A DNA stretch of 64,000 nucleotides from an uncultured Gammaproteobacteria bacterium (GTDB lineage Bacteria; Patescibacteriota; Microgenomatia; Levybacterales; UBA12049): positions 14,465-78,464 of the forward strand of contig CAYILI010000001.1 of assembly GCA_964364105.1 (NCBI GenBank), read 5' to 3'. Numbering within the stretch: the first letter of the stretch is position 1; every line of letters begins with the position of its first letter. Positions 15,510 through 62,061 of the stretch are shown here, in pieces. A program made the position numbers and the translations under genes. The notes below the pieces were generated by a model. It saw only the letters and a list, made by a program, of their open reading frames with translations. It searched no databases and was not told the DNA's origin.

Positions 15510-16175
15510 TTAGAGGGCGCCTTTGCCGGAGACCATTGCACCTGGAGTTTTCATTATTATAGATATGTCATATGCAATTGATCTCTTTTTAACATATTCT
15601 GCGTCCATTTTAATTCTTTTATCAAAGTTTATTTCCGATCGCCCGGAAACCTGCCAATATCCAGTTACACCGGGTCTAACTGAAAGTACTATTTTTACAG
15701 GCTCCCGAGTTTCAGGATATCTTACCTGCTGGTCACGGAGCTCATCTGGATAGTATGCACGGGGTCCCACAAGACTCATATCACCTTTTAAAATATTAAA
15801 AAATTGTGGAACCTCATCGAGAGAATGCTTTCTGATGAAATGCCCGACATTTGTGATCCTTGGATCATCCTTTAACTTATAACTTCCTTTTTTGTAGTCT
15901 CTATAAAGCTCTGCAAATTTAGGGTTTTCGCGCAAAAGTTCATGAGCGTTTTCGATCATTGAACGGAATTTATACATCTTAAAAAGCTTACCGTTTTTTC
16001 CAACTCGCTCAGGTGTATCAGCCAAAACTGGCCCTTTAGAATCAAGCTTAATTGCAATAGCGACCAAAACAATTACGGGAGAGAAGATAACGATAAGAAC
16101 CAAAGACAAAACTATATCGATAAGTCTTTTAAATAACTCATACAAGACACTTTTTCTGACTTCAATAATTGGCAT
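15510..16175 (-). CDS. Polyprenyl-phosphate sugar phosphotransferase (bacterial sugar transferase, WbaP/PglC C-domain type)
   Basis: Single N-terminal TM, then KMYKFRSM...PGVTGYWQVSGRSEI. This is the PF02397 signature. Confidence 0.85.
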   Translation of the reverse strand: MPIIEVRKSVLYELFKRLIDIVLSLVLIVIFSPVIVLVAIAIKLDSKGPVLADTPERVGKNGKLFKMYKFRSMIENAHELLRENPKFAELYRDYKKGSYKLKDDPRITNVGHFIRKHSLDEVPQFFNILKGDMSLVGPRAYYPDELRDQQVRYPETREPVKIVLSVRPGVTGYWQVSGRSEINFDKRIKMDAEYVKKRSIAYDISIIMKTPGAMVSGKGAL

Positions 16176-16180
16176 ATTTT

Positions 16181-16249
16181 ATCCTGCACTTTCTATCTCA
16201 CTCCTCCCAAACAAAACCCAAACCCTGACTGTAAATAAAAGTGCAGGAT
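16181..16249 (-). promoter_or_regulatory. 12-bp perfect inverted repeat (ATCCTGCACTTT / AAAGTGCAGGAT) spanning the intercistronic gap from the manC-like stop to 6 nt before the sugar-transferase ATG
   Basis: Arms at 16181-16192 and 16238-16249 with a 45-nt loop. The 3' arm on the mRNA contains AGGA (a likely SD) 9 nt before the ATG at 16175. Confidence 0.4.
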
Positions 16250-17323
16250 TTAGGTAAGATGTTCGTGAGGAGTTCCTGCTAGACTCTCGACTAATTTTTT
16301 AATTTTAGGAACCGATGATTTAGGACAAACTAAAACAACATCTTCTGTGTTAATTACTAGCATTTCAGAAAGATCGATTCCTACAGTAAGCTGATTAGTG
16401 TAGTTAAAAACAAGACTATCTCTTGAATCTTCTACCATAACTTTTCCTTTCGTAACGTTCTCGTCAGCTTTCTCGCTCAATGCCTCCTTTAGCGCTTCCC
16501 ATGCTCCGATATCGCTCCACCCTATGTCAACTGAAATAACAGAAATCTTACTTGTTGTAAATTTCTCAAGTATTGCATCATCAAAGCTAATTTTTTCCAA
16601 CGCTGGATAAATCTCATCCAGTGATTTTTCAAAGCTTGATGAATCAACTATTTTCATAAGCTCGGTATACATTTGTGGCGCAAATCTTTCAAACTTTTCA
16701 ATTAAATATGCAGGAGTCGTGACGAAATATCCCAAGTTCCAAACATAGTGTTCGTCTTGGAAAAAATCTTCTGCTTGAGATAATTTGGGACGATATTTAA
16801 GCTTTTTAAATTCAAGCGATTTCAAACCTCCCTCTTCCCGCAATTCATCTCCGCAATAAATCCATCCCACATTCTGATTAGCAAATCTTGGTTTTTGCCC
16901 TATAAAAACGAAGTCAGATTTTCCTTCTGTTATAGATTTCTCAGCCATTCGGAGTGCCCTTTGGAAAATCTTAACTTCCCTAACCATGTGATCACTCCAA
17001 ATAATAGCCATCGGTTCATTTGGAAATCTTTTATTAATTATGGCCGTTGTTAGTCCAATCGCAGGCCCGACATCGCGCATTTCAGGCTCGAATATAAAAT
17101 TCTCCTGGGGTATATCTGGAAGCTGATCTATCACAATATCTTTGTATCTTTTTCCAGTTGCCACATAAATATCAGAAGGATCAAACTCGGGCTGAAGTCT
17201 GGCAACCGCTTCTTGAAGTGTTGATTTATCGCCAATTAATTTTCCAAACTGCTTTGGAGTATTTTTCCTCGAAAGAGGCCAAAGCCTTGTTCCTACTCCT
17301 CCTGCAAAAATAACTACCTTCAT
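16250..17323 (-). CDS. manC: Mannose-1-phosphate guanylyltransferase (GDP-mannose pyrophosphorylase, ManC/CpsB-like, without a PMI domain)
   Basis: MKVVIFAGGVGTRLWPLSRKNTPKQF N-terminus. Confidence 0.75.
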   Translation of the reverse strand: MKVVIFAGGVGTRLWPLSRKNTPKQFGKLIGDKSTLQEAVARLQPEFDPSDIYVATGKRYKDIVIDQLPDIPQENFIFEPEMRDVGPAIGLTTAIINKRFPNEPMAIIWSDHMVREVKIFQRALRMAEKSITEGKSDFVFIGQKPRFANQNVGWIYCGDELREEGGLKSLEFKKLKYRPKLSQAEDFFQDEHYVWNLGYFVTTPAYLIEKFERFAPQMYTELMKIVDSSSFEKSLDEIYPALEKISFDDAILEKFTTSKISVISVDIGWSDIGAWEALKEALSEKADENVTKGKVMVEDSRDSLVFNYTNQLTVGIDLSEMLVINTEDVVLVCPKSSVPKIKKLVESLAGTPHEHLT

Positions 17324-17401
17324 CCCGTTAGAAAACCTCCTTTTCGGCTTTACTATCTAACATATTAAACTTGCTGGTTAAAATAAATTTTCTAACGGGA
17401 T
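17322..17401 (-). repeat. Intercistronic inverted-repeat element J1 (14-bp perfect arms ATCCCGTTAGAAAA / TTTTCTAACGGGAT)
   Basis: mRNA sense: TGAATCCCGTTAGAAAA-(52 nt)-AAAGGAGGTTTTCTAACGGGATGAAGGTAG. The 5' arm abuts the stop of the GT4 gene (17402). The 3' arm carries the SD and ATG of manC (17323). Confidence 0.6.
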
Positions 17402-18553
17402 TCATAAATTTGTATTCTTTTCTAAGAATTCTTCCAAATTTTTCTTAAAGTTTTTATAAGAAAATCTCTCCGAATTCCTTACTATGTCAGCAGTATTATA
17501 TAGTCTTTCATCGAATCTTTCCAATACCCTATTTAACGATTCAGGGCTTTGTTCCGAGAAAAACTCACCAGTTACCCCTGTTATTACTATGTCTAGTGCC
17601 CCTCCATTTTTAAAAGCTATTACAGGTTTTCCAAACAATTGCGCTTCTGCCATTACGAGTCCGAAGTCTTCATTTCCTGGAAAAATTAAAGCTTTGCAAT
17701 TTTTATAGTAATACCTAAGCTTCTCGTCTGTCAATTCTCCAAGAAACTGAATATTCTTATTTGAGCGTTTTTTTAAAGCTGACATCATGGGTCCTCCTCC
17801 AATTATTTTTAAAGGAAGTCTATTCTGATTAAACGCTTCGACAGCTAAATCCACTCGTTTATAATTACTAAACCGGGACATTCTGGACACTAAAAGAAAA
17901 TAATCATTTTTTCTTTTTTTTATATTTTTTGGCTTATCTATCATTAAAGGCGGAAAAATTATTTCACTGTCTCGGTCATAATATTTTTTAATTCTATTTT
18001 TTACTTCTGAGGAAATTGCAATCATGTGATCTGGTCTTTGAGAAGCCATCCTGTCCCAGTTTTTTAAATATTTAATAGAACCCTGAGCCAAAAATCTAGT
18101 AATAGGATTTGGGAAATACTCATCATAACCACTCCACAAATATCTTGTAGGCGTAAGACAATAACAAATGTGGACTGTGCCTGGATTTGTAATTATTCCT
18201 TTTGCTGCTTCACTTGTAACTGAGATTACCAGGTCATATTCATCGAATGAAAAATGCTCAAAAGCTATTGGCATAAAAAGCGCCAAGAGCTCATTATACT
18301 TACGAAGAGCCGAAGCAGATTGAAGAAAAGAGGTATTCACCTCAAACTCTTTTGCCCAAGAACTCCCTTCCTTACTATAAACTGAGGTATACAAAGGAGC
18401 TTCTGGGAAAATTTTATGCAGTGCTAAAAGTACTCTTTCTGCCCCGCCCCACTTATTTACTCTGTCATAAACGAGCGCTACTCGTAATCTTCTCGAATGA
18501 CTCAAATTACTATCTAATCTATTCGAATTCATCATCCCTCTCCGATAAATCAA
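17402..18553 (-). CDS. Glycosyltransferase family 4 (GT-B)
   Basis: VNKWGGAERVLLALHKIF and the C-terminal E.FG..MAEA motif. Confidence 0.7.
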   Translation of the reverse strand: MIYRRGMMNSNRLDSNLSHSRRLRVALVYDRVNKWGGAERVLLALHKIFPEAPLYTSVYSKEGSSWAKEFEVNTSFLQSASALRKYNELLALFMPIAFEHFSFDEYDLVISVTSEAAKGIITNPGTVHICYCLTPTRYLWSGYDEYFPNPITRFLAQGSIKYLKNWDRMASQRPDHMIAISSEVKNRIKKYYDRDSEIIFPPLMIDKPKNIKKRKNDYFLLVSRMSRFSNYKRVDLAVEAFNQNRLPLKIIGGGPMMSALKKRSNKNIQFLGELTDEKLRYYYKNCKALIFPGNEDFGLVMAEAQLFGKPVIAFKNGGALDIVITGVTGEFFSEQSPESLNRVLERFDERLYNTADIVRNSERFSYKNFKKNLEEFLEKNTNL

Positions 18554-18932
18554 TGTCTTTGAAATTAGGATTGATTATTCTTCTATAGCGAATTTTAGTC
18601 CCTCGAAAATTAACAATAATTGCGAGCGGCAGATTGGTTTGTTTTAAATAGGACAATGCTTGTTTGAAAAATTTTGGAGAATAATGCTGCTGAGCTTTTA
18701 CTTCAAGAATTAATAAATCTTCTACTATGAAATCAAGAAAGTATCTCCCGATACTTTGACCATCATATTCAAGCTTAACTGGAACCTCCCTTTTAAATGA
18801 AAGGCTATTTATATTTAATTCCTTTTCTATCGCTCTCTGGTAGTATTTTTCTAAAAGAGCGGAACCCAGTTCGTTGTGAACTTTAAATAAAACCCCCATG
18901 GTCTTGTAGCTTAATTTCGGAAGAACCAGCAT
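18519..18932 (-). CDS. GxxExxY-family (PD-(D/E)XK-like) small protein
   Basis: LGSALLEKYYQRAIEKEL...FLDFIVEDLLILEVKA...LAIIVNF matches the GxxExxY family pattern. Overlaps the upstream GT4 gene by 35 nt. Confidence 0.55.
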   Translation of the reverse strand: MLVLPKLSYKTMGVLFKVHNELGSALLEKYYQRAIEKELNINSLSFKREVPVKLEYDGQSIGRYFLDFIVEDLLILEVKAQQHYSPKFFKQALSYLKQTNLPLAIIVNFRGTKIRYRRIINPNFKDIDLSERDDEFE

Positions 18933-18953
18933 ATTAGGATATATTCGATTTTA

Positions 18954-20066
18954 TTAGATACTATTCGAAAAAGTATTGTAGACCCGAAGGGTCTGCCGGG
19001 CAGTTTTTTCCCATGAATATTTTTTTACTTGCTCATATCCTTTTTTAATTAACTTCTCCTTTTCCGAAGTTGATAAATTTAAAACGTGTTTCATTTTTGA
19101 AAGTATATCATCACTTTTAAATTGATCAAAATAAATAATTGAATCTCCAAATACCTCTCTATGGACTGGAATATCTGAGGCTAAAACCAAACATTCATTT
19201 TCCAAAGCTTCAAGAGGCGGGAGACTAAAGCCCTCCATCAAGCTTGTTCTCACCAAAGCATTTGCTCCCCTGTAGAGCTCTGACAACTTTTCATCACTTA
19301 CATTTTCTAAGAAAATAACTTTATCATTTCCCATATTTTTCTTAACATGTTCTTTTAGTTTTTTATATAAAAAGTCATTACTCCCGACAAACACCAAACG
19401 AAGTGTTGGATCTTCCTTTACTAAAGATTTAAATGACTCCAGAAGAAGTCCTACATTCTTATGCTGAAAAACATTTCCAACATACAAGAAATAATTTTTT
19501 ATTTTCTCTTCTTTCTTATTGGAAACCTTCATATCATCAGCAGCTTCATAAATCACTTCAATCTTAGACCTATTAGTTTTCAAGGTGTCCATGATATCTT
19601 TTCGTGTAAAGTCAGAAACTGCAATTATTTTTTTCGATACTCGTGCTGCATTTGCGACAACAATTCTATATGCGATTACTTTAAATCCTAAAAGCCAAAG
19701 CGGAAGAGTAGATGAGGCACCGCTTACAAAATGATGAAAAATTAAATCATGAATTGTCACAACATATGGCTTCCTGTATAAAACAGGTATGCTGAAATAT
19801 GGAAAATGCATTAGATCTACTTTTTCTTTTTTTATGATTCCAGGAAATCTTAATTGTTCCTTAATCGAGTGCCATTTAAGATTTGCGGCTACAATCTTCC
19901 ATTCTTTGTTTTTTATTTTTTCTTCAACTTCTTTTTTATCAGACTTTAAAACAAACAAAACATAAGAATTATTTTTATCAATCTTTGATAAATTTATAGT
20001 TAAATTTCTTATGTATCTTCCAACCCCTGTTTGACTCCAAAGCCTTCCATCAATTCCTATTTTCAT
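18954..20066 (-). CDS. Glycosyltransferase family 4
   Basis: MKIGIDGRLWSQTGVGRYIRNL start and a C-terminal EGFSLPPLEALE motif. Confidence 0.75.
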   Translation of the reverse strand: MKIGIDGRLWSQTGVGRYIRNLTINLSKIDKNNSYVLFVLKSDKKEVEEKIKNKEWKIVAANLKWHSIKEQLRFPGIIKKEKVDLMHFPYFSIPVLYRKPYVVTIHDLIFHHFVSGASSTLPLWLLGFKVIAYRIVVANAARVSKKIIAVSDFTRKDIMDTLKTNRSKIEVIYEAADDMKVSNKKEEKIKNYFLYVGNVFQHKNVGLLLESFKSLVKEDPTLRLVFVGSNDFLYKKLKEHVKKNMGNDKVIFLENVSDEKLSELYRGANALVRTSLMEGFSLPPLEALENECLVLASDIPVHREVFGDSIIYFDQFKSDDILSKMKHVLNLSTSEKEKLIKKGYEQVKKYSWEKTARQTLRVYNTFSNSI

Positions 20067-20173
20067 GCTCCTTCGCTCCTTTTCAATATTATAAATCTAA
20101 ACATACCGTTAAAATAGCCGAAACAATTCTAGCTTCGGACGCATGACCCTTCCGTAATTTTAATGAAGGCGGG

Positions 20174-21079
20174 TCATACAGTTTTTTTTCTTTTTGCTAA
20201 AAATAATTTAGTATCAATTCCGAGATATACCAACCAATTAATAATAAAAGGATATTTTCTAGCGTAATGTTTTTTATAGAAAATCTTCATAGTTGAGTAA
20301 AAATATCCCAGTGATTTATTTTTCGTAGACTTATCTGCGCCAGAATTCTCCTGACTATGTTTTTTAATGCCAGAGGAAACTCCCTTAACATGCAATATTT
20401 TTACTTGTGGAACATACATAACTTTAAACCCGGCTTTTTTTGCGCGAAAACACAAATCAATATCTTCTCCATAAAGAAAATAATCTTCATCAAAATATCC
20501 AATTTTCTCAACCATTGATTTTCTAATAAACATAAACGCTCCCACCACACTGTCAACCTCATGGGTTTTTGACATATCTCTATCTGTCAAATGATAAAGT
20601 CTATCGTTTTTAAAAAAGAAATGTAAAAAAGATGCAAGTGGAGTTGGAAAACCCCTGTGAGATGCGGCGTCAATTGAGCCATCCGCCTTCTCAATCTTGG
20701 AGGATGAAATTCCAACGTCCGGGTTTTTTTCCATAAAATCATAAATATATGAAAGGGTCCCACGCGGAACTTCTGTGTCAGGATTTAATGTCAAAATATA
20801 CGGTGAGTCTGATTTTCTTAAAACTAAATTGTGTGCTTTTCCAAAACCTAAATTCTCTTTATTAAAAATAAAATTAAACTGCGGAAATTTTTTCTTAGCT
20901 TTTTCTGCGCTTCCATCAGATGAAGCATTATCGACAATATAAACTTCAAAATCTAATTCTTGCTTGATTTTTCTTAAACTCCCCAAACAGCTAATTAAAT
21001 ATTCGCTAGCATTATAGTTAACAATTGAAATTGTAAGTTTTTTCATATTTCTTATGACACTAGCGTTGCTCCTTTCCAA
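20174..21079 (-). CDS. Glycosyltransferase family 2
   Basis: ISIVNYNASEYLISCLGSL...VDNASSDGS, and a DxD region. Confidence 0.8.
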   Translation of the reverse strand: MERSNASVIRNMKKLTISIVNYNASEYLISCLGSLRKIKQELDFEVYIVDNASSDGSAEKAKKKFPQFNFIFNKENLGFGKAHNLVLRKSDSPYILTLNPDTEVPRGTLSYIYDFMEKNPDVGISSSKIEKADGSIDAASHRGFPTPLASFLHFFFKNDRLYHLTDRDMSKTHEVDSVVGAFMFIRKSMVEKIGYFDEDYFLYGEDIDLCFRAKKAGFKVMYVPQVKILHVKGVSSGIKKHSQENSGADKSTKNKSLGYFYSTMKIFYKKHYARKYPFIINWLVYLGIDTKLFLAKRKKTV

Positions 21080-22235
21080 CTTCAGAATAAACAGAGTCTA
21101 ACTTCGCTGCTATATTTTTCCAGTCAAAATTTTTCTCAATAAATTTTCTACCATTTCTCGAAATTTTTTCATACAGATAATCATCAGTTAAAAGTAATGA
21201 TGTTTTATTTGAAAATTCTTCAGGCTTATCACAAATAATTATTTCTTCGTTTTCTTTTGCTTTTATTCCTTCATTTCCAAGCGATGTTGTTACAACGGGA
21301 GTACCCGAGGACATGGATTCTAAGATTTTAAAATTAGTTCCCCCGCCTACCCTAATGGGTGATAACAAAACATCTGCTTCTTGAAAAATCCTCTCTGTTT
21401 CATTTGGCGCATTTTCATCAAAGATTATGGAATCATCCTTTAAATTTTTTATGCTATCTGGGATTTTCTTCCCAACAATCCAGAGAGTAGTATCGGGATT
21501 TTTTGCGTAAACCTTCGGCCAGATATTTTTAATAATATAAACTATAGAATCTCTGTTTTGGATCCATTTAAAGTCTCCTATAAACAAAACTTTAGTACGC
21601 TTTTCTTTTACATTTTTTTTCATTTTAAACTTCTCTATGTCTACTCCGTTCGGAATAATTTCAACATCTCTACTCATTTCCTTAGCTTCAATTTCTGATA
21701 CTGCAACTAGTCTCGTAGCTTTTTTCCAATATGCTTTTTCCGCTCTTTTTAATTTTAAAACATCAAGATATAAAAGCGGGCGAACGATAATTAAACTTTT
21801 TTTAACAAATTTCTCATAAACTTTATACTCTACATTATGCTCTACTAAAACTACCGGTAAACTTGTCTTGGGTAAATTCTGCATTACATAAAAAGTCTCA
21901 ACGTGGATTAAATTAAACTTTTCTTCGGCAAGTAGTTTTGAGATTATTTTTCTCATTTCCAAGTTTTTATGTCCAGTAATAAGAAACGGGTCTAAAGAAA
22001 AACCAGTCTTAATAATATTTTTTGCGCTCCACTGTTTTTTTCGCTCCGTCGTATAAATTCTTTCACAAATCTTTGAAACCTCATCAATGTCTCTTTGAGT
22101 TTGTGACTCTCTTTTTTCACATACTAAAGTTATTGAATGTTTTTCTGATAGATTTTTTATTAAATTATAAAGACGAATTTGCCCGCCAGAAAAAAGAGGA
22201 AAAGGCAGATATGAAGAAACAATTAATATTTTCAT
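21060..22235 (-). CDS. Glycosyltransferase family 4. The start is more likely the MKILIVSS Met at 22235 than the ORF-track start at 22265.
   Basis: GT4 C-terminal motifs. The Met at 22235 is supplied by the J2 element 3' arm (CTAACGGGATGAAAATATTA). Confidence 0.7.
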   Translation of the reverse strand: MKILIVSSYLPFPLFSGGQIRLYNLIKNLSEKHSITLVCEKRESQTQRDIDEVSKICERIYTTERKKQWSAKNIIKTGFSLDPFLITGHKNLEMRKIISKLLAEEKFNLIHVETFYVMQNLPKTSLPVVLVEHNVEYKVYEKFVKKSLIIVRPLLYLDVLKLKRAEKAYWKKATRLVAVSEIEAKEMSRDVEIIPNGVDIEKFKMKKNVKEKRTKVLFIGDFKWIQNRDSIVYIIKNIWPKVYAKNPDTTLWIVGKKIPDSIKNLKDDSIIFDENAPNETERIFQEADVLLSPIRVGGGTNFKILESMSSGTPVVTTSLGNEGIKAKENEEIIICDKPEEFSNKTSLLLTDDYLYEKISRNGRKFIEKNFDWKNIAAKLDSVYSEVGKEQR

Positions 22236-22299
22236 CCCGTTAGAATTTTCATTTTTCTCAATCATAATTAAATGCTCCCGTAGAAATTACTAACGGGAT
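22234..22299 (-). repeat. Intercistronic inverted-repeat element J2 (ATCCCGTTAG-AATTT / AAATT-A-CTAACGGGAT)
   Basis: mRNA sense: TGAATCCCGTTAGTAATTTC-(loop)-GAAAATTCTAACGGGATGAAAATA. Runs from the stop at 22300-22302 to the probable ATG at 22235. Confidence 0.55.
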
Positions 22300-23742
22300 T
22301 CATGGATTTTTTCTTAAATCAAAAATTATATATTCAGAAGTTTCTTCTAAAACTGTATAGTCCTTTTTAAAATAATCGTCTGCCGGTTTTGGATTAGCAA
22401 TCACCAGATAATCGGTCCCTAAGTTTCTAACCATTATATTTAAATCATCCTGATAACTAGACCATCCTCTTCTTTTAGTCTGGTATAAAAGGGATGTATC
22501 TCCTTCATAATTTGCGATGACTAAGCTGTCCTTAGGCGTTAATCTATCTACTGCCGAACCCGCTGTAATAATTGCACGATTATTTATATTAAAATAATCC
22601 CTAACCTGATACCAGCTGAACATAAATGCAAAACCTAATGTTCCTATAAGAACAATTGGCGCTAGATATTTGTTTGCTAAATTTTTTCCGAGTGTTAATA
22701 AAAAATCTCCTCCAAGTCCAGCAAAAATACAAAGAGTTGGAAGAATAAGTATTTGGTAATAGTCGTGCTGGATGTTTCCCCTAGCTATTACAGTCACATA
22801 AAGAATTGAAGAAACAAGAAACGAATAAAAGAATAAATAACTGGATTTAGTTTTAGCAACTAGTCCCAATACCACTAGAAAAACTCCCCAATATCCCAGT
22901 ATTAGTTTTGAAATTCTTTCAGCAAAAATCCAATTAAAAAATGCCCCTTTAAAACGCATTCCGCCTCCATTAAAAAGCCAATTAGAGCTCGGGATTCCTT
23001 CCGGAAACTGTGTCATCCATTGTCTCCAAAGCATCATAGGAAAAAGGGATGTTATAGCAAAAACCCAAAGATATGGATTCATAATCATTCTCATACCAAA
23101 TGATTGATAAGCAAGATATAGCATTGGGAGTGTAAAAAACATTGCGAATGGTTTTAGTAAAAATGAAGTTAGGGTAAATAAAATTGATAAAAAATAATAG
23201 ATGAATTTTTTATATCTCACTTTTTCCTTAACCCATAAATCAAAAAAATAAATTCCTGCAATAATTGTTGCAGCTGTTGAAGTATCCGGCAAAATTGTTC
23301 TTCCGTAATAAATACTATATGGCAGAAGTGTAAAAACAAATGCTCCCATTAGACCTGCTCTTTCGTTTTGATGTTTTTTTAATATTAGAAAAATAAGTAA
23401 AGCAGTAGAAATAGATGCAAATATTGTTATTAGTCTACCCCATTCTTCAAGCGTAATGACTGGAAATAGTTTATATAAACCTGCCTGGAAAAAATTATAT
23501 ATTGGGAATTCTACAAATCTGTATCCTTGTGGATTATTTAAACCTGACGGAACATTTGATAAATCGTGATATTTAGGATGTAGTAAATCAAATCCATTTT
23601 CTACGAAAATTCTTGAAACTGATGAAGTATCTGCTTGCCGCCAGGAATGCCAATCAGCAATTGGGCTATCTAATTTATAAAGTCTTAGAATAAATCCTAA
23701 AACGAGTATACCTACGAGAAGCACCAGGTGAATTCTTTTCAT
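22300..23742 (-). CDS. Polytopic GT-C-type membrane glycosyltransferase (ArnT/PMT-like)
   Basis: About 12 predicted TM segments, 480 aa, with the aromatic-rich loops typical of the family 39/83 fold. The assignment is by architecture. Confidence 0.5.
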   Translation of the reverse strand: MKRIHLVLLVGILVLGFILRLYKLDSPIADWHSWRQADTSSVSRIFVENGFDLLHPKYHDLSNVPSGLNNPQGYRFVEFPIYNFFQAGLYKLFPVITLEEWGRLITIFASISTALLIFLILKKHQNERAGLMGAFVFTLLPYSIYYGRTILPDTSTAATIIAGIYFFDLWVKEKVRYKKFIYYFLSILFTLTSFLLKPFAMFFTLPMLYLAYQSFGMRMIMNPYLWVFAITSLFPMMLWRQWMTQFPEGIPSSNWLFNGGGMRFKGAFFNWIFAERISKLILGYWGVFLVVLGLVAKTKSSYLFFYSFLVSSILYVTVIARGNIQHDYYQILILPTLCIFAGLGGDFLLTLGKNLANKYLAPIVLIGTLGFAFMFSWYQVRDYFNINNRAIITAGSAVDRLTPKDSLVIANYEGDTSLLYQTKRRGWSSYQDDLNIMVRNLGTDYLVIANPKPADDYFKKDYTVLEETSEYIIFDLRKNP

Positions 23743-23763
23743 TAAGTTTATTTTAATTTATCC

Positions 23764-27847: not shown

Positions 27848-28401
27848 TATCTAAACCAAGCAGCTCTACCTAATTTATATTGAGGATCTTTATTTGTACG
27901 AATCCCAATCTCTTTTGCGGGAATTCCACCCACTATCTTAAACTCGCCAACATCTTTGGTAACTACTGCTCCTGCAGCGATAATTGCTCCCTTTCCAATC
28001 TTAACCCCGGGCAAAATTATTGCGCGGGGTCCGATAAAAACATAATCTTCGACTTCTACGGGAGCTGTGACAGCTTTAAATTTTTCATCATTTATGTCGT
28101 GCTCTGAATTATAAATCATGACTCCGGTCGCGATATCTACATGATTTCCAATTTTAAGCTTATCTCTTCCATCCAAAACTGCCCACTCACCAACAATCGT
28201 GTCGTTACCAATCTCAATACCACGAGGATTATATATAGAAAGGGCCATATGAATAGTAGAACTTCGCCCTATTTTCATTCCAAAAACTCTATAAGAAAAG
28301 CGTCTTAAATGGTGACTTGGAATAAATCCAACTATCCAAATTAAAAATCCATTAATAAATTCCAAGATTATCGCATTCATTCTTCTGTTCATCTTATCCA
28401 C
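27847..28401 (-). CDS. Hexapeptide-repeat (LbH) sugar O-acetyltransferase
   Basis: IGNDTIVGEWAVLDGRDKLKIGNHVDIATGVMIY...IGPRAIILPGVKIGKGAIIAAGAVV gives left-handed beta-helix repeats. Confidence 0.75.
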   Translation of the reverse strand: MDKMNRRMNAIILEFINGFLIWIVGFIPSHHLRRFSYRVFGMKIGRSSTIHMALSIYNPRGIEIGNDTIVGEWAVLDGRDKLKIGNHVDIATGVMIYNSEHDINDEKFKAVTAPVEVEDYVFIGPRAIILPGVKIGKGAIIAAGAVVTKDVGEFKIVGGIPAKEIGIRTNKDPQYKLGRAAWFR

Positions 28402-29530
28402 GTCCTACCTCCTCTAAAACCGCTAAAGTCTCCCTAGTAGATTTTTCCCAGGAAAACTTTTCTACTTGCTTCTTACCTTTTTCAATAAGCTGCTTCTTAA
28501 GATTATCATCTTCTAATAATTTTTTCATTTTTTCCGATATGTCACTTACGCTATTTGGATCTACATAAAGCGCTGCGTCTCCTCCCGCCTCAGGAAGACT
28601 TGAAACATTACTGGTTATTACTGGCGTTCCATAATTCATGGCTTCAAGAACTGGGATTCCAAATCCTTCATAAAGACTTGGAAGAATAAAAAATTCTGCG
28701 TTTTTATATAAAACTGGAAGCTCTTCGTCCGTTACATTTTCTAAAAACAAAACTTTGTCTTTTACATTATATTTTTCAGGAGCGTTAAGTATTTCCTCAT
28801 ATTTCCATCCCCGTCTTCCAACGATAATCAAACTAACGTCAGTCTCAATTTTTGAATATGCTTCAATAAGACGAGTAATATTTTTTCTTGGTTGAAGAGT
28901 CCCAACAAATAATATGTATTTTCCATTAATTCCAAACTTCTTTCCTAATTTGTCCATACTTAATACACGATACTTACTACTTGATACTTTATTGATTCCC
29001 GGGTAAATTACCTCTACTTTTTCCTCTTTTACTCCGTATTCTTTAATTATATCATTCTTACTTGACTCACTAATTGTTAAGATTTTCATAGATTTTTTTG
29101 CAGAGTAACTAGTCCATTTCTTAAGCTGAATTAAGTCTTTTTTCTTAAAAAGCTCTGGAAAATATAAGTAAGAAACGTCTAAAATTGAAACGACAGATTT
29201 CTTAGGTGCGAAGATTGGTAAATAATGAGTTGGGGTAAAAAAAACATCAAGCGATCTATCTTTTAATAAATTTAAAGATAGAGAAGTAATTGTCCACATT
29301 TTTCTAGAAGGGAGAATTCTGTATTTCCATGTGTCAGTTGCTTTAGGTAAATCATTCGTAGGGCTTTGAGGTAAAAATATTTCGTAGTTATTTTTAACAT
29401 CAATTTTTGCAAGATTTTTTAATAGCTCAAAACAATAGACACTACTCCCAACTCTATTTGGAAGATTTGTAGTTTTGTTATAACCAAATCTCGGAACTAC
29501 CGCTTCGTAACCATTAATTCCAATTTTCAC
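28394..29530 (-). CDS. Glycosyltransferase family 4. Its GTG start is supplied by the end of GIY-YIG element copy 1.
   Basis: EGFGIPVLEAMNYGTPVITSNVSSLPE. The first codon is GTG at 29528-29530, which overlaps the stop of the GIY-YIG ORF. Confidence 0.75.
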   Translation of the reverse strand: MKIGINGYEAVVPRFGYNKTTNLPNRVGSSVYCFELLKNLAKIDVKNNYEIFLPQSPTNDLPKATDTWKYRILPSRKMWTITSLSLNLLKDRSLDVFFTPTHYLPIFAPKKSVVSILDVSYLYFPELFKKKDLIQLKKWTSYSAKKSMKILTISESSKNDIIKEYGVKEEKVEVIYPGINKVSSSKYRVLSMDKLGKKFGINGKYILFVGTLQPRKNITRLIEAYSKIETDVSLIIVGRRGWKYEEILNAPEKYNVKDKVLFLENVTDEELPVLYKNAEFFILPSLYEGFGIPVLEAMNYGTPVITSNVSSLPEAGGDAALYVDPNSVSDISEKMKKLLEDDNLKKQLIEKGKKQVEKFSWEKSTRETLAVLEEVGRG

Positions 29531-29784
29531 CCTGTTAAATAAGATTTAAGTCTATTTCTTAAAAACATCTTTCCATGATATGTTTTAAGATATTTTTCTC
29601 TATGAGTGGCATCTTGCTGATTTAGACAAGCTTCATAGTAAATGAGCTTAAACTTCCCCCTTTCTTTAGTGGATGCAACTTGTTTATTTTCATGCTGCTT
29701 AAATCTTAATTTTAAATCCTTGGTATAACCAGTATAAAACATTTTATCTTTGTCGGATCTAAGAATATAAATGTAGTAAAACAT
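29527..29784 (-). CDS. Stand-alone GIY-YIG nuclease (85 aa), copy 1
   Basis: MFYYIYILRSDKDKMFYTGYTKDLKLRFKQHENKQ contains the GIY-x(10)-YIG core. The C-terminal YLTG is encoded by the TIR. The ORF-track 126-aa version adds an unlikely N-extension. Confidence 0.8.
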   Translation of the reverse strand: MFYYIYILRSDKDKMFYTGYTKDLKLRFKQHENKQVASTKERGKFKLIYYEACLNQQDATHREKYLKTYHGKMFLRNRLKSYLTG

Positions 29785-29811
29785 TCTGGATTTAAAATTA
29801 TTTAACAGGGT
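29529..29811 (-). mobile_element. Miniature TIR element copy 1 (283 bp) encoding a GIY-YIG nuclease
   Basis: Perfect 14-bp terminal inverted repeats: ACCCTGTTAAATAA at 29529-29542 and TTATTTAACAGGGT at 29798-29811. A second copy lies 1.8 kb away. Confidence 0.75.
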
Positions 29812-30346
29812 AAACTGCAGGATAAATAACTTTAACTTTAGATGCTTCAATACCCAAAATTTCTTCAATATCTTTTTTACTCGACTCAGAAATCGTAAAA
29901 ATAACATCTGACTCTTTTTTGAGCCATTTAATTTTCCTTTTTTGTGTATCTATTATTTTCCTGGCAGTTTCTTCTGGATTCTTGTAAACAATAAGGTCAT
30001 ATATAATGGTCGCCTTCTTAGCTTTTTTTGTGGGTGGCTCTGTCCAGTCAGATGTAATAAATAAATCAACCGGACCAATCAGCCATTCGATAGGTAAAAT
30101 GTGCAGCCTGTTCCAGAGTAAATCTAATAATAATGGCGGGAATTTAAATTGTTTAATTTTTACATTTTTAGGAATTGAATGAAAATTGAAAATTGAAAAT
30201 TGAAAATTTCTTCTCATTGATGAGAAGAATAGAATATATTCATTTTTTTTGTCTTCTTTAAGTAAATTTTCAACTAAATTTATCAGGTAGTTTGATACAC
30301 CAGTTTTTGAATAGACAACCTGACTAACATCAATTCCAATTCTCAT
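29798..30346 (-). pseudogene. N-terminal half of a GT4 glycosyltransferase, truncated after ...KVKVIYPAV by a stop inside the TIR of GIY-YIG element copy 1
   Basis: MRIGIDVSQVVYSKTGVSNYLINL is a typical GT4 start. The reading frame ends YPVK-TAA inside the TIR at 29798-29812. The C-terminal catalytic domain is absent. Contains a (GAAAATT)x4 repeat. Confidence 0.6.
30181..30208. repeat. Heptanucleotide microsatellite (GAAAATT)x4 inside the truncated GT4 fragment
   Basis: Read directly: gaaaattgaaaattgaaaattgaaaatt, preceded by a degenerate unit. Confidence 0.9.
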
Positions 30347-31119: not shown

Positions 31120-31345
31120 GCTTAAATCTTGAATCTTTGATAATCGATAATAAAACAGCGATTACGAAAAAAACAAAAGAAAACCAAACTAAGCGCTGGG
31201 CTGTAAAAAATATCCATTGGGCAAATAAAGGAATTGAAAGAACCAAACACGAAAGCCCTGCAATCACAAAAAATTTAGGATCTCTTTTTATCAAGAGCAA
31301 AAGAAAAACAATTATAAACAATAAATCCTGTGGTTTAAAATCCAT
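31109..31345 (-). CDS. Small membrane protein (78 aa, 2-3 TM)
   Basis: Hydrophobic ORF. Its ATG is 2 nt downstream of the GIY-YIG copy 2 TIR. Confidence 0.35.
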   Translation of the reverse strand: MDFKPQDLLFIIVFLLLLIKRDPKFFVIAGLSCLVLSIPLFAQWIFFTAQRLVWFSFVFFVIAVLLSIIKDSRFKHGK

Positions 31346-31603
31346 TTACCCTGTTAAATAAGATTTAAGCCTATTTCTTAAAAACATCTTTCCTAAGTAT
31401 GTTTTAAGATACTTTTCTCTATGAGTTGCATCTTGTTGGTTTAAACAAGCTTCATAGTATATAAGCTTAAATGGCCCCCTTTCTTTAGTTGATTGAACCT
31501 GCTTATTCTCATGCTGCTTAAATCTTAATTTTAAATCTTTTGTGTAGCCAGTATAAAACATTTTGTCCTTATCTGATCTTAGTACATATACGTAGTAAAA
31601 CAT
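31346..31603 (-). CDS. Stand-alone GIY-YIG nuclease (85 aa), copy 2
   Basis: MFYYVYVLRSDKDKMFYTGYTKDLKLRFKQHENKQVQSTKERGPFKLIYYEA.... Differs from copy 1 at 5 of 85 residues. Confidence 0.8.
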   Translation of the reverse strand: MFYYVYVLRSDKDKMFYTGYTKDLKLRFKQHENKQVQSTKERGPFKLIYYEACLNQQDATHREKYLKTYLGKMFLRNRLKSYLTG

Positions 31604-31629
31604 ACTAATTTAAAATTATTTAACAGGGT
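31348..31629 (-). mobile_element. Miniature TIR element copy 2 (282 bp) encoding a GIY-YIG nuclease
   Basis: The same 14-bp TIRs, at 31348-31361 and 31616-31629. About 85% nt identity to copy 1. Confidence 0.75.
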
Positions 31630-31633
31630 GAAT

Positions 31634-32560
31634 CTAGCTGGAATATTTTAATAGAATTTTAGATTCGTTTTCGCTTTTACTTGAGATATTGAGAACTAAA
31701 TCCGCGATAAGACCAGTAAGTCCGACTTGGAGCCCAGCTATGATAAGAAGCATTCCTAAAACCAGCAAAGGCCTTGTCCCAATCGCCTCACCCAAAAAAT
31801 GCAGGATTGATAGATATAAGGAAATCAAAATCCCCAAACCAAATAAGATAGCTCCTATAAATCCGAAAAAATGAAGTGGTCGCTTACCGTATTTGCTTAA
31901 AAAAATCATGGTCATCATATCAGGCATCTGCGTTAATACTTTAAGAGCTCCATATTTACTCTTACCCCAGCGTCTTTCATCATGAACGACTGCAACTTCT
32001 GTTACCCTAAATCCTTCCTGTGCTACTAAAAGCGGTATGAATCTATGCATTCCACCATATAAATTTACCGACTTTGCTGCATCACTGGTGTAAAGTTTTA
32101 GTCCGCAATTATAATCATGAAGTCTTACTCCCCAAAACATTGAAGCGACTAAGTTAAATGCTTTTGAAAATATAATCTTGGCAAAAGAATCTTTTCTTTC
32201 TTTTCTCCATCCGGAAACCATGTCATATCCTTCTTTATGTTTCTCGATCAATTTGTGGACTTCTGAAGGCTTGTCCTGAAGATCAGCATCCATTGTAACT
32301 ATCAAATCCCCCTTGGCTTTTTGGAAACCAAAAGTTAAAGCTTCTGCTTTACCATGATTTCTTCGGAAAGAGTAAACCCTAATATTTGAATCTTTCTTCT
32401 CAAGATCCCTGATCAAACTCAATGTATTATCAAATGACCCATCATCAATAAAAATTATTTCGTATTCCTTTGATAGAATTTTTGCGTGCTTTAGGAGCTC
32501 TTCATAGAAATGAAGAATACTCTCCTCCTCATTAAAAACTGGCACTACATAACTAATCAT
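31634..32560 (-). CDS. GT2 polyprenyl-phosphate glycosyltransferase (DPM1/GtrB/ArnC-like, with C-terminal TM helices)
   Basis: ISYVVPVFNEEESILHFYEELL...EIIFIDDGSFDNT and a two-helix C-terminal anchor. Confidence 0.8.
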   Translation of the reverse strand: MISYVVPVFNEEESILHFYEELLKHAKILSKEYEIIFIDDGSFDNTLSLIRDLEKKDSNIRVYSFRRNHGKAEALTFGFQKAKGDLIVTMDADLQDKPSEVHKLIEKHKEGYDMVSGWRKERKDSFAKIIFSKAFNLVASMFWGVRLHDYNCGLKLYTSDAAKSVNLYGGMHRFIPLLVAQEGFRVTEVAVVHDERRWGKSKYGALKVLTQMPDMMTMIFLSKYGKRPLHFFGFIGAILFGLGILISLYLSILHFLGEAIGTRPLLVLGMLLIIAGLQVGLTGLIADLVLNISSKSENESKILLKYSS

Positions 32561-59368: not shown

Positions 59369-60347
59369 ATCCCATCTTAATTAGCTTATCTCGTAGATCA
59401 TGGTCTTCAAGAACTTTTTCAATTCCATCTTTAATTGAGTCGATGCTAAGCGGATCAACATAATAAGCCGCTTTCCCCGCTACTTCTGGGAGTGAACCTG
59501 ATTTCGAAGTAATAACTGGACAACCTGACTGCATTGCTTCGAGAATTGGCAGCCCAAACCCTTCATACAGAGACGGCATACAAAGAGCTATGGCTGCATT
59601 ATAAAGTCCTACAAGATCTTCATTTTCAACAAATCCCAGTGAAATAATATTTTTGTTTCTAGCGGCTAATTCTTGAGATTTCTTAAGGTCTTTATTCCAT
59701 AAATTACTTTTGTCATAATCCTCATTTTCAAAAGCTTGTCCCACAATTACAAGCGGATAACTAGTCCGATTTACTGCCTCAATTAACCTTGGGAGATTTT
59801 TATTTGATGTAACATCGCCTACATAAAGCGCAAACTTCTGTGGAAGATTAAATTTCCTTATAATCTCCCGCTTTTTTTCATCTGAAACTGGTCTAAAATG
59901 CTTTCCTGCTGCGAGATATATCACTTTTATCTTAGATTCATTATAATTTGTGACCTTAACAATATCTTTCTTCGAGGACTCTGAGTCGGTAATAATAAAA
60001 TCTGAATTTTTAAGAATTTGTTTTTGAATTTGCCACTTCACTTCGCCTTTTAATCCTGATGGAAAATCATCCCTAAAAACTATTGGAGTTAAATCGTGAA
60101 CTGTAATTATTGTTTTAACAGGCTTTCTTAAAGAAAGTGTTAAAAAAAATGGTTCAAAATATGGATAATGAATTAGATCAATTTTCTTATCTAATTTATC
60201 CCCTCTTTTTGTGAAGACAAACTCATCTTCACCATATTTGTCCAGAAGAGCCTCTTTTAGGTTATTTAGATAAAATCCTGTTCCTCTTACTCTATGCTGA
60301 AGAAAATGACCTGATGTAATAGGAGATATATCAATTGCTACCTTCAT
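59280..60347 (-). CDS. Glycosyltransferase family 4
   Basis: [15 protein letters not shown]...[27 protein letters not shown]. The ATG is supplied by the J3 element. Confidence 0.75.
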
Positions 60348-60411
60348 CCCGTTAGAAAAGCCTCCTTCTGTGATATTTCAAATTTGGAATATATTATTTT
60401 TCTAATAGGAC
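60346..60411 (-). repeat. Intercistronic inverted-repeat element J3 (a diverged copy of J1)
   Basis: mRNA sense: TGAGTCCTATTAGAAAAA-(loop)-GAAGGAGGCTTTTCTAACGGGATGAAGGTAG. The 3' 35 nt are nearly identical to J1. The 5' arm differs at 3 positions, 2 of which keep pairing as G-U. Confidence 0.55.
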
Positions 60412-62061
60412 TCATTTCTTAATTTTAATGTATTTATCCCACATAAACAAACAAAATAAAGTGAGTGCGGAAAAAATAGTAATGACAAGTGAGATAGTCT
60501 GGAGTTTGGTACTTTTCAAAACTACTTCAAGAATGTGTTCGCCACTTGGGACTCTTACCTTAAAGATTCCGTCCTTTGTGATTACTGCGGGAACGGTGGC
60601 TCCATCAATCTTTACTATCCAGCCAGGGAAATGGGCTATATTTATTAAAACTTCCCCTTCCCTACTCCCCTTCAAAATAAATTTTTCTTTTGTTACGTTG
60701 CTTGAAATTGGGTTAATCTTAAAACTATTCGATAATACTCTTTCTTTTGCTGTAGGGAGTTTTGCGTTGAAATTAAGCGTGTTAAAAACATTCCCAGGAC
60801 TATTTGTACCATAAATGAAGTTCTCTCTTTTTAGGTAGTACTGATCATCTCTAATGTGGTGGAATGGTGCCTTAATGTAATTTATTGAAAACCCGATAGA
60901 AAACACTATCAGCGATATTGAGATAATTATCCTCAAGTGTTTACTTTTTATTAATTTTTCAGATACTATAAATCCCGCTAAAAAGGATGAAGCTAAAATC
61001 ACAACGCTTAAAAGTCTCCATGGAAATTGAATATAAGAAACAAAAGGAACATTTTTCCAGACAAATTCAGACAAAGGTGTTATTAAAAAAACCGTAAAAA
61101 TAAATATGAACAAGAAGTACCCAATTATATTAATTCTTTTTTTTAAGATAAAAATAAGTAAACAAACTATGACTACTAAAATATTTGCAATACCAATTTG
61201 AAATGACATTTGATCTGGAACATTTATCCCCGAAAAACCATATCCCCAGGAAGAATAAATTAATTTATAGATAACCGGAAAATGCTGGGTTGGATCAAAA
61301 ATTTGAAGCCCTCTGACGTATTTAGTTTCGAGAATTGCAGGCAGCCAAAAAATTGCTGAAAGTCCAGTTCCCAAAACTGAAATAAAAATCGCAGAACTAA
61401 ATTCCTTTAATTTATTTCGAGCATTTTGTTTTTTAATAAAAGACTGAAAAAATGCATATGAAAGAAAAAAAGCAAAAAATACAACCGCCAGGATATTATG
61501 CGCAAGAACGATAAGAGCCATCGAGAATGATGAAAACACAAAATATTTTATTTTTCTTGATTCGAAATATGATTGATATCCCCATAAAAGGATTGGAGCT
61601 AAACCAAGACTCCACACTTCCCCTACAGAACCCCTAACATATATATCTAGGAGATGGTAAGGTGAGTAAGCATAAAAAACAGTGCTAACCAATGCCCCCC
61701 ATTCGCCCCAAAACTTTTTAGTCCATAGATAAAAGAAAATTGACCCTATAATTGTCGCAAAAATCATATTTAACTTTAAAGATTCTATAAAACTAAATCC
61801 CAGTAAATGAGTAAATGCTGCTACATAATTAGGCAGCGGATAAACATAATTAAAAAGTGGAATTCCGTAGCCATTATTAAAGTCTTGTGCCCATCTGGGA
61901 TAGAGTGTTCCTTCGTTTATAGACTTAAAAAACTGCTCAAATCTAAGAACATGGAACTCTCCATCATGAGTTGGCGGAAGTCCGGGTTTCAGAAGAGAAA
62001 TTACAGAAAACAACGATATGAATATTGAAGCAATTAAAAATTTATAATTACTTATTTTCAT
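60412..62061 (-). CDS. Polytopic GT-C-like membrane protein (549 aa)
   Basis: N-terminal PTHDGEFHVLRFEQF...LYPRWAQDFNNGYGIPLFNYVYPLPNY motif followed by about 12 TM helices and a C-terminal extracytoplasmic domain. Confidence 0.4.
   Translation of the reverse strand: MKISNYKFLIASIFISLFSVISLLKPGLPPTHDGEFHVLRFEQFFKSINEGTLYPRWAQDFNNGYGIPLFNYVYPLPNYVAAFTHLLGFSFIESLKLNMIFATIIGSIFFYLWTKKFWGEWGALVSTVFYAYSPYHLLDIYVRGSVGEVWSLGLAPILLWGYQSYFESRKIKYFVFSSFSMALIVLAHNILAVVFFAFFLSYAFFQSFIKKQNARNKLKEFSSAIFISVLGTGLSAIFWLPAILETKYVRGLQIFDPTQHFPVIYKLIYSSWGYGFSGINVPDQMSFQIGIANILVVIVCLLIFILKKRINIIGYFLFIFIFTVFLITPLSEFVWKNVPFVSYIQFPWRLLSVVILASSFLAGFIVSEKLIKSKHLRIIISISLIVFSIGFSINYIKAPFHHIRDDQYYLKRENFIYGTNSPGNVFNTLNFNAKLPTAKERVLSNSFKINPISSNVTKEKFILKGSREGEVLINIAHFPGWIVKIDGATVPAVITKDGIFKVRVPSGEHILEVVLKSTKLQTISLVITIFSALTLFCLFMWDKYIKIKK

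Follow-up and report, generated by a model that had tools for sequence, protein, structure and literature searches.

Miniature inverted-repeat elements on start codons of candidate-phyla genomes and their probable relation to a small GIY-YIG nuclease

Three inverted-repeat elements in a glycan locus

The window analyzed here is a stretch of 64,000 nt from contig CAYILI010000001.1 (positions 14,465 to 78,464; all coordinates below are window positions), and our subject is a short inverted-repeat element that occurs three times among its glycan genes. The three copies lie on the minus strand at the junctions between a glycosyltransferase family 4 (GT4) gene and a ManC-like nucleotidyltransferase gene (J1), a PMT_2 membrane glycosyltransferase gene and a GT4 gene (J2), and a gene for a YfhO/PTPS-related membrane protein and a further GT4 gene (J3) (Table 1). 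They are 64 to 78 nt long, and near-identical ends (TCCCGTTAGAA...TTCTAACGGGA) enclose unrelated interiors. Each copy occupies a stop/start junction: the TGA of the upstream open reading frame (ORF) is followed by ATCCCGTTAGAAAA...TTTTCTAACGGG in J1, by ATCCCGTTAGTAAT...AATTCTAACGGG in J2, and by GTCCTATTAGAAAA...TTTTCTAACGGG in J3, and then comes the ATG of the downstream ORF, which starts inside the 3' arm. Element-free orthologs of the downstream genes use the same ATG. The initial annotation, made from the letters of the stretch, had placed three elements at these junctions, with a 5' arm whose first base is the final A of the upstream TGA and a 3' arm holding the downstream ATG, and had described the arms as perfectly complementary in J1, interrupted in J2, and changed by three transitions in the J3 5' arm. 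All of this is borne out by the sequence, the J2 interruption falling after 10 bp.

Exact CTAACGGGAT occurs five times in the window, and allowing up to one mismatch gives 6 matches compared with 1.96 expected. What is decisive is not this count but the arrangement, i.e., three inverted pairs that all sit precisely on stop/start junctions. The symmetric element reads T-CCCGTTAGAA...TTCTAACGGG-A between 4-bp TGAA direct repeats, with ATGA(A) on both sides of each of J1 to J3, and the outermost A...T pair of the arms as initially drawn consists of the last base of the left duplication and the first base of the right one. Native 4-nt ATGA stop/start overlaps are numerous in the same genome.

Each site was compared with syntenic loci of relatives, which carried ManC orthologs at 94, 86, 84, and 80% identity for J1 and J2 and GT4 orthologs at 84, 74, and 65% identity for J3 (retrieved loci are labeled with L and a number; L120 is the 94% relative at the ManC locus). 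In relatives without the element, the J1, J2, and J3 sites hold a single ATGAA, usually as an ATGA stop/start overlap. The J1 site is empty in L121 and L122 (ATATGAAAGTAG, with the ATGA overlap) and in L124 and L125; the J2 site is empty in L120, L121, L122, L124, and L126; and the J3 site is empty in L130 and L131 (AAGAAATGAAGGTAGCAAT, one ATGAA). For J2, the empty site in L120 reads ...AAAAAGCCCATGAAAATATTAATTG, the filled site in the window reads ...AAAAAATCC-ATGAA-TCCCGTTAG...CTAACGGG-ATGAA-AATATTAATTG, and their MAFFT alignment gives an insertion of 68 nt, i.e., 64 + 4. As these relatives carry a single ATGAA and the window carries a duplicated TGAA, we conclude that J1 to J3 are insertions and not conserved regulatory RNAs. 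The comparison of orthologous junctions that the initial annotation had proposed as a check therefore finds no conservation but a polymorphism, with sites either empty or filled. The J3 element is also present in L128 and L129, as an orthologous copy whose arms have decayed independently.

At the J1 site, L120 holds another family member (L120:9882-9997; 116 nt; GCCGCGATCGC subfamily), and the two sequences would be consistent either with independent hits on one target or with the replacement of one element by another. This subfamily has 22-nt repeats containing GCGATCGC and was also seen in L006, L060, and L004.

The initial annotation had further pointed to a stretch from the Shine-Dalgarno (SD) sequence to the first codons of the downstream gene that is shared by two copies. 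The GGTAG past the ATGAA (in J1 and J3) is host sequence and not part of the element, as the empty sites read ATGAAGGTAG in both genes (L124 and L130). A local duplication of GT4 gene starts, named as an alternative origin of the three copies, is ruled against by the lack of similarity into the coding sequence beyond the duplicated ATGAA.

Table 1. Positions of the inverted-repeat elements, their duplications, and their mini-ORFs in the window
Feature	Position	Strand	Remarks
J1 element (TCCCGTTAGAAAATTT...AAGGAGGTTTTCTAACGGGA), 78 nt	17323..17400	-	Between GT4 (17402-18553) and ManC-like nucleotidyltransferase (16250-17323, start 17323); final base A (17323) is the A of the ManC ATG
J1 left TGAA duplication	17401..17404	-	TGA is the upstream GT4 stop; with A at 17405, the original ATG
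J1 right TGAA duplication	17319..17322	-	TG completes the regenerated ATG (17323-17321)
J1 mini-ORF (MNPVRKFILTSKFNMLDSKAEKEVF-stop)	17328..17405	-	From the original ATG (overlaps upstream TGA) to TAA in the 3' repeat
J2 element, 64 nt	22235..22298	-	Between PMT_2 membrane glycosyltransferase (22300-23742) and GT4, whose true start is 22235
J2 left TGAA duplication	22299..22302	-	TGA is the PMT_2 gene stop
J2 right TGAA duplication	22231..22234	-	
J2 mini-ORF (MNPVSNFYGSI-stop)	22268..22303	-	Premature end
J3 element, 64 nt, decayed 5' repeat TCCTATTAGAA	60347..60410	-	Between YfhO/PTPS-related membrane protein (60412-62061) and GT4 (59280-60347, start 60347)
J3 left duplication, now TGAG	60411..60414	-	A>G common to L128; TGA is the upstream stop
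J3 right TGAA duplication	60343..60346	-	
J3 mini-ORF	60344..60415	-	TGA overlaps GT4 ATG (ATGA)
Sister full-length element A, ends TACCCTGTTAAATAA ... TTATTTAACAGGGTG	29527..29812	-	85-aa GIY-YIG ORF, PF01541, E 2.3e-15
Sister full-length element B, ends CACCCTGTTAAATAA ... TTATTTAACAGGGTA	31346..31630	-	85-aa GIY-YIG ORF, PF01541, E 1.2e-15

A dispersed family placed on start codons

Beyond the window, at least 118 loci were obtained from a pattern scan of one genome per species, and at least 120 more from metagenome contigs, which were scanned with the two repeats alone and the flanks unspecified (second scan); all copy counts from here on (with denominators such as 127, 125, 122, or 95) are among the matches listed in these two scans. 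The proposed repeat family is thus real, and the further copies whose existence was to be checked are many and dispersed. In the first scan they came from many Patescibacteria classes, Omnitrophota, Planctomycetota, and a few other labels, the labels being those of metagenome-assembled genomes (MAGs). Three copies fall within the 64 kb of the window, several contigs per MAG carry copies, and copies of the same genome can have a common interior between different flanks (L005/L072/L078 and L006/L018). Viral contigs gave 0 matches to the same pattern, and a phage vector was rejected.

The duplication seen at J1 to J3 holds for the family. With unforced flanks (second scan), the 4-nt flanks are identical in 83 of 125 copies and match at three of four positions in 14 more, and the duplication is TGAA in 55 copies, TGGA in 7, TGAG in 7, TAAA in 5, TGTA in 3, and something else in a few others. 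Variant duplications in the genome-derived set (first scan) are likewise matched left and right within a copy. The family thereby has target-site duplications (TSDs), seen both in these flank counts and against the empty sites of the J1 to J3 orthologs.

The start codon is the site of about 70% of the copies: in 92/127 and 82/122 copies of the two sets, an ORF of at least 80 to 100 amino acids (aa) begins with the regenerated ATG. An A precedes the left TGAA in 93 of 100 copies, compared with 31% of TGAA sites genome-wide, and the left pentamers at unforced flanks are ATGAA (41), ATGAG (8), ATGGA (5), ATGTA (4), and GTGAA (4). As a long upstream ORF ends at the left TGA in only 34 of 127 copies, the general target is the start codon, and the stop/start overlap of J1 to J3 is a special case; the idea that the left ATGA is always the stop of an upstream gene was rejected on the same count. 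The proteins encoded downstream of 92 copies match 110 different Pfam families, including MreB, TopA/topoisomerase I, pyruvate kinase, tRNA synthetases, ribosomal protein L4, and NDK, which argues against the device for glycan genes that the initial annotation had considered. Insertion, duplication, dispersal, and start-codon position are firmly shown by these observations.

The element ends in A (sometimes G), and therefore its terminal base together with the duplicated TG recreates an ATG (or GTG). The repeats are arranged such that they do not derail translation. The 5' repeat ATGAATCCCGTTAGAA can be read through in the frame of the original ATG (M-N-P-V-R), and the other two frames hold TGA and TAG; the 3' repeat TTCTAACGGGATGA offers, depending on element length, a TAA 4 nt before the ATG, a TGA that overlaps it, or a fusion to the host protein in frame (...SNGM). 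In the 95 copies with a left ATGA, the resulting mini-ORF ends at the TAA in 29, at the overlapping TGA in 15, in an in-frame fusion in 13, and at an early stop in 38. In 57 of these 95 copies the interior has no stop in the frame of the original ATG, compared with 17 and 26 in the other two frames and about 25 expected from shuffled sequences (Fisher p 8e-10; about 2.5 times the other frames), and the depletion was replicated in the metagenome set (35 of 60, compared with 12 and 14). Such a frame-specific lack of stops points to a translated mini-ORF that would hand ribosomes to the host gene, so that a translation relay is supported statistically by the stop pattern.

The mini-ORF is complete in J1, where its TAA lies 4 nt ahead of the ManC ATG and where the same depletion suggests that it is translated, and also in J3; it stops early in J2, where an ATG at 22265, 2 nt past the mini-ORF stop, is in frame with the GT4 gene (MIEKNENSNG-MKILIV...). 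The J3 mini-ORF is open and of the same length in L128 despite about 10 substitutions. A conserved leader peptide MNPVR was rejected as the cause of conservation: not even synonymous changes are seen in the invariant nucleotides, all three phases are represented among the element lengths, and an early stop ends 40% of the mini-ORFs.

In 24 copies an SD-like motif is located immediately upstream of the 3' repeat, compared with 6 at the mirrored position, and an SD-like GGAGG in functional orientation is present in about 20% of copies. One role proposed in the initial annotation, a repeat resembling transposable elements of the miniature inverted-repeat type (MITEs) that donates translation-initiation signals, comes close to the evidence, both in its terminal inverted repeats (TIRs), duplication, empty sites, hundreds of dispersed copies, and regenerated ATG and in this GGAGG.

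Nuclease-encoding relatives and the weighing of explanations

The terminal repeat consists of 11 conserved nt plus two variable but complementary positions, i.e., 13-bp TIRs, and each of positions 1 to 13 is Watson-Crick paired in 86 to 95 of the 89 to 95 copies assessed per position. The two positions after ATCCCGTTAGAA vary (AT 54, GT 22, AG 10, GC 9, AC 9, AA 5, and others), and despite this variation they are complementary in 104 of 113 copies. The covariation at positions 12 and 13 is equally present in relatives of about 290 nt, in which the arms are far apart. This pairing constraint at the repeat ends points to a need of the element's own propagation, with the ends being recognized as a structure.

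These relatives have the same repeats and duplications and an ORF of about 86 aa inside (L218, L177, and L246); the L218 ORF runs from MYYTYILKSKKSGRFYTGSTNDLQKRLKLHNDGK to RRFLTLTG-stop, and L252 to L254 have the same layout, with TGAA on both sides. The ORFs are a GIY-YIG catalytic domain (PF01541, E 1e-15 to 1e-17); their nearest solved structures are UPF0213 proteins 1zg2 and 1ywl, and there is a weak match to SLX1, a structure-specific nuclease. The nuclease ORF follows the frame of the original host ATG (MNPVR-VLKV-MYYTY...), the 3' repeat makes up its last codons (L-T-L-T-G), and its TGA stop shares bases with the ATG of the host gene. We found 665 homolog clusters; among the best 120 of the 665, 42 have M[NS]PVR as their called start, and the last residues of about 100 are (S/T)LTG, SQTG, or FRTG. 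Because homolog clusters start and end in this way, both termini of the protein are repeat-encoded. In L246 (1121-1462), a mini element is nested in frame within the GIY-YIG gene of a full-length element (..YTGFSV-DPVRSK...TSNGM-DLRKRL..), and without the nested mini a normal GIY-YIG domain is restored (PF01541, E 2.7e-17). Inverted repeats also accompany other small GIY-YIG genes in the fetched loci, but these are different ones, specific to the respective family. P0280, an identical GIY-YIG protein, was found in one genomic context across many samples and therefore gives no evidence of recent jumps. A survey of 2006 had already described puzzling insertions and fusions of the stand-alone GIY-YIG domain and had raised the question of a molecular parasite (PMC1564403).

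Within the window there are two sister full-length elements, A and B (Table 1), which share a 271-nt repeat (29526-29796 and 31345-31615) that is 85% identical. The element A ORF starts with an ATG at 29784 and ends in ...SYLTG-stop, its TGA overlapping the GTG start of a GT4 gene (28394-29530); the element B ORF (31603-31346; MFYYVYVLRSDKDK...SYLTG-stop) belongs to an element that directly follows the stop of a glycosyltransferase family 2 (GT2) gene (31634-32560). Together with their flanks, the outer ends of A and B (31619-31632 and 29526-29539) are perfectly complementary as an inverted repeat of 14 nt, as are the inner ends, a pattern that suggests a past rearrangement between the two. 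A truncated ORF with a GT4 N terminus (29798-30346) runs into the 5' repeat of element A.

Based on these features, we consider it likely that J1 to J3 are non-autonomous minis of a TIR-bounded mobile element whose full form of about 290 bp encodes only an 86-aa nuclease of the Slx1/YhbQ-type GIY-YIG class. The minis are short and free of a transposase (64 to 78 nt with a mini-ORF of 12 to 26 codons), and the same-ended forms of about 290 nt supply a candidate mobilizer. In this respect the MITE reading was essentially right. The element inserts with a 4-bp duplication, usually TGAA and generally TGNN, the target in about 70% of copies being the TG plus 2 nt of a start codon and, in tight operons, often an ATGA stop/start overlap. 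Its terminal A and the duplicated TG rebuild an ATG ahead of an intact gene, and with the left duplication the stop of the upstream gene and the first start codon are both retained. Ribosomes initiating at this original ATG, or re-initiating there after the upstream stop, would read the mini-ORF through the element (in full-length copies, the nuclease itself), melt the hairpin, and pass to the host ATG by termination-reinitiation. As ribosomes would thus be relayed to the host ATG, the insertion would be nearly neutral and the nuclease would be expressed from the initiation signals of the host. We infer from the architecture of the full-length forms that the GIY-YIG nuclease mobilizes both forms, probably by recognizing the ends as a hairpin or cruciform.

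More tentatively, although we regard it as quite possible, the stand-alone Slx1/YhbQ-type nuclease could be the mobilizer of an unrecognized class of prokaryotic transposons and their MITEs, defined by hairpin or cruciform ends, start-codon integration with a 4-bp duplication, and parasitism of host initiation. Translation of the nuclease would begin at the host ATG, that of the host gene would be restarted at an ATGA overlap, and the class would extend across Patescibacteria, Omnitrophota, and Planctomycetota. If true, such a class would also account for the long-noted odd fusions and insertions of the domain and for the purpose of many UPF0213 genes. The widespread selfish element that encodes a GIY-YIG nuclease, the probable parent of the minis, is apparently undescribed: the literature searched, in which few subscription journals were covered, describes neither a GIY-YIG element with TIRs and TSDs nor start-codon-specific MITEs, and a text search with the arm sequences returned cloning primers alone, which are coincidental.

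Several points weigh against the nuclease-borne mobile element. The repeat of elements A and B (ACCCTGTTAAATAA) is related but different and has no clear duplication, and a partner with the exact ends of J1 to J3 was seen only in other genomes. The 86-aa nuclease is the domain only, with no DNA-binding domain, and it could be cargo or a co-resident selfish gene; to our knowledge, GIY-YIG enzymes are not established as transposases. Some copies have duplications of 3 or 5 bp or none at all. Survivorship could account for the start-codon bias no less than targeting could. SD-like motifs upstream of the left ATG are barely above background (14/94, compared with 9/94), and the relay is not obligatory, since 38 of 95 and 25 of 60 mini-ORFs in the two sets end prematurely. 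Further, some taxon labels, such as "Gammaproteobacteria", may be binning errors.

The best surviving alternative, which we nevertheless hold to be unlikely, is an ordinary MITE moved in trans by a DDE transposase (e.g., of the IS1380/piggyBac type), with the GIY-YIG gene as a passenger or homing-type gene lodged in some copies. TIRs with a TSD are the classic DDE signature, and the 4-bp T-N-A-A duplication and (T/C)CCCGTTAGAAAG repeats resemble those of piggyBac (TTAA; CCCTAGAAAGATA; CCC ends), for which the rare TSD variants TAAA and TCAA have been reported; nested insertions also occur, as in L246. However, none of the window ORFs is a DDE transposase, and no repeat pair 0.5 to 6 kb apart bounds a longer ORF in about 2 Mb of fetched loci. 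Across hundreds of homolog clusters, moreover, the N-terminal extension and the last five codons of the GIY-YIG protein are the repeats themselves, which argues for long co-evolution of the ORF and the ends, and the family-specific inverted repeats of other small GIY-YIG genes speak the same way. A protein that binds end by end also needs no complementarity at positions free in sequence.

Still less probable, in our view, is a domesticated portable initiation cassette, whose copies would be kept for supplying an SD sequence and an ATG and for insulation from out-of-frame read-through. Such a role would fit the excess of SD-like motifs over the mirrored position, the stop codons in two frames of the repeats, and four copies with GTGAA on the left and ATGAA on the right (GTG to ATG); it would also fit the J3 segment from the SD to the ATG, which is identical between the window and L128 although the 5' half is about 20% diverged. 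However, about 80% of copies lack the SD-like motif, the spacing from GGAGG to ATG is about 12 nt and above the optimum, and the sites are polymorphic among close relatives, with no hint of a requirement for the element. The cassette explains the persistence of some copies, not the duplication, the dispersal, or the nuclease-bearing forms.

The third alternative is the conserved RNA hairpin that had been preferred to a DNA repeat alone in the initial annotation, i.e., a host-selected device for translational coupling or attenuation in glycan genes, with the SD and the AUG masked until ribosomes finish the upstream cistron. Stable folds with the AUG in the stem are predicted for J1 (-23.3 kcal/mol, z -3.3), J2 (-18.0 kcal/mol, z -2.3), and the L120 member at the J1 site (-33.4 kcal/mol, z -4.3), and less so for J3 (-13.7 kcal/mol, z -1.1); in J1 to J3 the 5' arm directly follows the stop, within the footprint of a terminating ribosome, and the inner repeat positions covary. 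Against this, the old J3 ortholog in L128 has lost its arm-to-arm pairing (-10.1 kcal/mol, z +1.27) while the gene order is kept, and arm mispairs are G.U in 28 cases and A.C in 22, i.e., equally common, so that selection on the RNA strand is not indicated. Without a G.U excess, the J3 wobbles, in which selection had been seen, are no more than the decay of an old copy by transitions. The element is present or absent at orthologous junctions among relatives of 65 to 94% identity, its host genes are of all functional classes, the TGA does not terminate an upstream cistron in about 70% of copies, the full-length relatives hold the same repeats about 260 nt apart, and a search of window positions 16000 to 24000 against Rfam 15 (E<=10) found nothing on J1 or J2. 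The hairpin is not maintained by the host as an RNA structure, and the RNA device is very improbable and, as the reason for the existence of the element, largely refuted.

With the nuclease-borne mobile element as the preferred reading, the family accounts for a very abundant unannotated feature of candidate-phyla genomes. Its hundreds of copies inflate intergenic regions and produce spurious "MNPVR..." small ORFs and N-terminal extensions, by which start-codon calling and RNA-motif searches are misled. A selfish insertion in the most sensitive 5 nt of a gene would be survivable through the rebuilt ATG, frame-specific stops, and a translated relay, making the element a natural portable "bicistronic design" module. 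If the nuclease does mobilize it, a new nuclease family would join the few transposase chemistries, and the stand-alone UPF0213/YhbQ domain would have a function. The presence or absence of copies among relatives of 80 to 94% identity, with another subfamily at the same site in one case, may serve as strain markers and as a clock for uncultivated groundwater bacteria.

Other insertions were seen in the window. A second MITE family at 16179-16251, absent from L120, sits on the ManC stop codon with repeats TCCTGCACTTT/AAAGTGCAGGA and a TAAA duplication (cc-TAAA-TCCTGCAC...GTGCAGGA-TAAA-atatg). A 111-nt insertion relative to L120 (20067-20177) lies at a GT2-to-GT4 junction with ATGA on both sides, begins with its own hairpin (ATGACCCGCCTTC...GGAAGGGTCAT), and contains the 3'-arm-like TTTTAACGGTATG; it was rejected as a fourth, degenerate copy of the J1 to J3 family and not counted, as its ends differ, and it may be a different or composite element. 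Two junction insertions absent from L120 (13380-13458 and 12751-12835) have TGTCAT...ATGACA ends (TGTCATTCGCAGCG...CGCTCAGGATGACA type), and GC-rich palindromes resembling these flank other small GIY-YIG genes in the unrelated loci L052, L090, and L154. A 466-nt insertion relative to L120 (18523-18988) contains an ORF (18519-18932) for a 137-aa PD-(D/E)XK nuclease (PF13366 PDDEXK_3, E 1.5e-30), which looks like another small selfish-type gene in the glycan operon. In addition, a 127-nt insertion relative to L120 (10852-10978) holds a GC-rich palindrome (CCTGCCTGCCGGCAGGCAGG) with a long run of T behind it and is terminator-like, and a perfect 60-nt tandem duplication (37493-37612) lies inside ORF 37188-38252, within a low-GC stretch (26 to 29%) at about 34 to 45 kb that has several large ORFs without a Pfam match.

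Comparison with known systems

A few candidate identities can be set aside briefly. A palindrome-associated element derived from IS200/IS605 (PATE), which would have one subterminal hairpin per end and insert 3' of a constant tetranucleotide with no duplication, was rejected on the grounds that the ends pair with each other here and that the flanking tetranucleotide is variable but matched left and right. An integron attC site has the reverse order (R'' RYYYAAC 5' and R' GTTRRRY 3', compared with GTTAGAA...TTCTAAC here). A tRNA-like T-arm was rejected for want of an acceptor or T stem, programmed ribosomal bypassing because the flanking genes encode complete, separate proteins, and an invertible ribosome-binding-site switch because the interior of 30 to 60 bp is too short and was not found inverted.

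The GIY-YIG homing endonucleases (I-TevI, I-BmoI, and T4 Seg) and Slx1/YhbQ share the PF01541 catalytic domain with the full-length forms only. Homing endonucleases have DNA-binding domains, target one cognate allele, depend on recombinational repair, and leave no repeats or duplications, whereas here a bare 86-aa domain goes with hundreds of unrelated genes, TIRs, and a TSD. An identity as a homing endonuclease gene was rejected, with neither an appended DNA-binding domain nor homing to a single allele. The likeness to piggyBac and IS1380 is a resemblance only, in the T..A-type duplication of 4 bp and the repeat CCCGTTAGAAAG compared with CCCTAGAAAGATA; the present family differs in an extra terminal base before CCC and in duplicating TGNN and not TTAA, and a DDE transposase was not found in the window or the fetched loci.

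Correia elements (CREE) of Neisseria and ERIC/IRU of enterobacteria are bacterial MITEs whose transposase is unknown and which are co-transcribed with their neighbors. Like J1 to J3, they are short (<160 bp) and have TIRs, a short duplication, and many dispersed copies (see also PMC3184786 and PMC2229807). They also occupy transcribed intergenic DNA, form mRNA hairpins, and can supply expression signals. Correia elements differ in duplicating TA and in having 26-bp repeats, and the J1 to J3 family differs from both in having a candidate partner gene, for a GIY-YIG protein, that shares its ends. We know of no Correia- or ERIC-type element reported to land on start codons, to rebuild an ATG, or to have frame-specific stops in its ends.

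In the REPIN/RAYT system, hairpin minis likewise accompany a small nuclease-type gene with the same palindromic ends, and structure-dependent recognition is apparent (PMC3116915, PMC3337134). RAYTs, however, are HUH/Y1 enzymes (IS200-like), and REP sequences carry GTAG/CGTC tags, make no duplication, and are placed after genes. An assignment of J1 to J3 to this system was rejected, as they have no tag, have a duplication, and are partnered with a GIY-YIG protein.

Finally, Rickettsia palindromic elements (RPEs) and IStrons also insert in expressed sequence while the host product is kept, by in-frame translation in RPEs and by self-splicing in IStrons (PMC4227781). The in-frame fusion class described here (..MNPVR...SNGM-protein) is RPE-like. 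In the J1 to J3 family, by contrast, harmlessness would be achieved by start-codon regeneration with termination-reinitiation, and the candidate enzyme belongs to another class.

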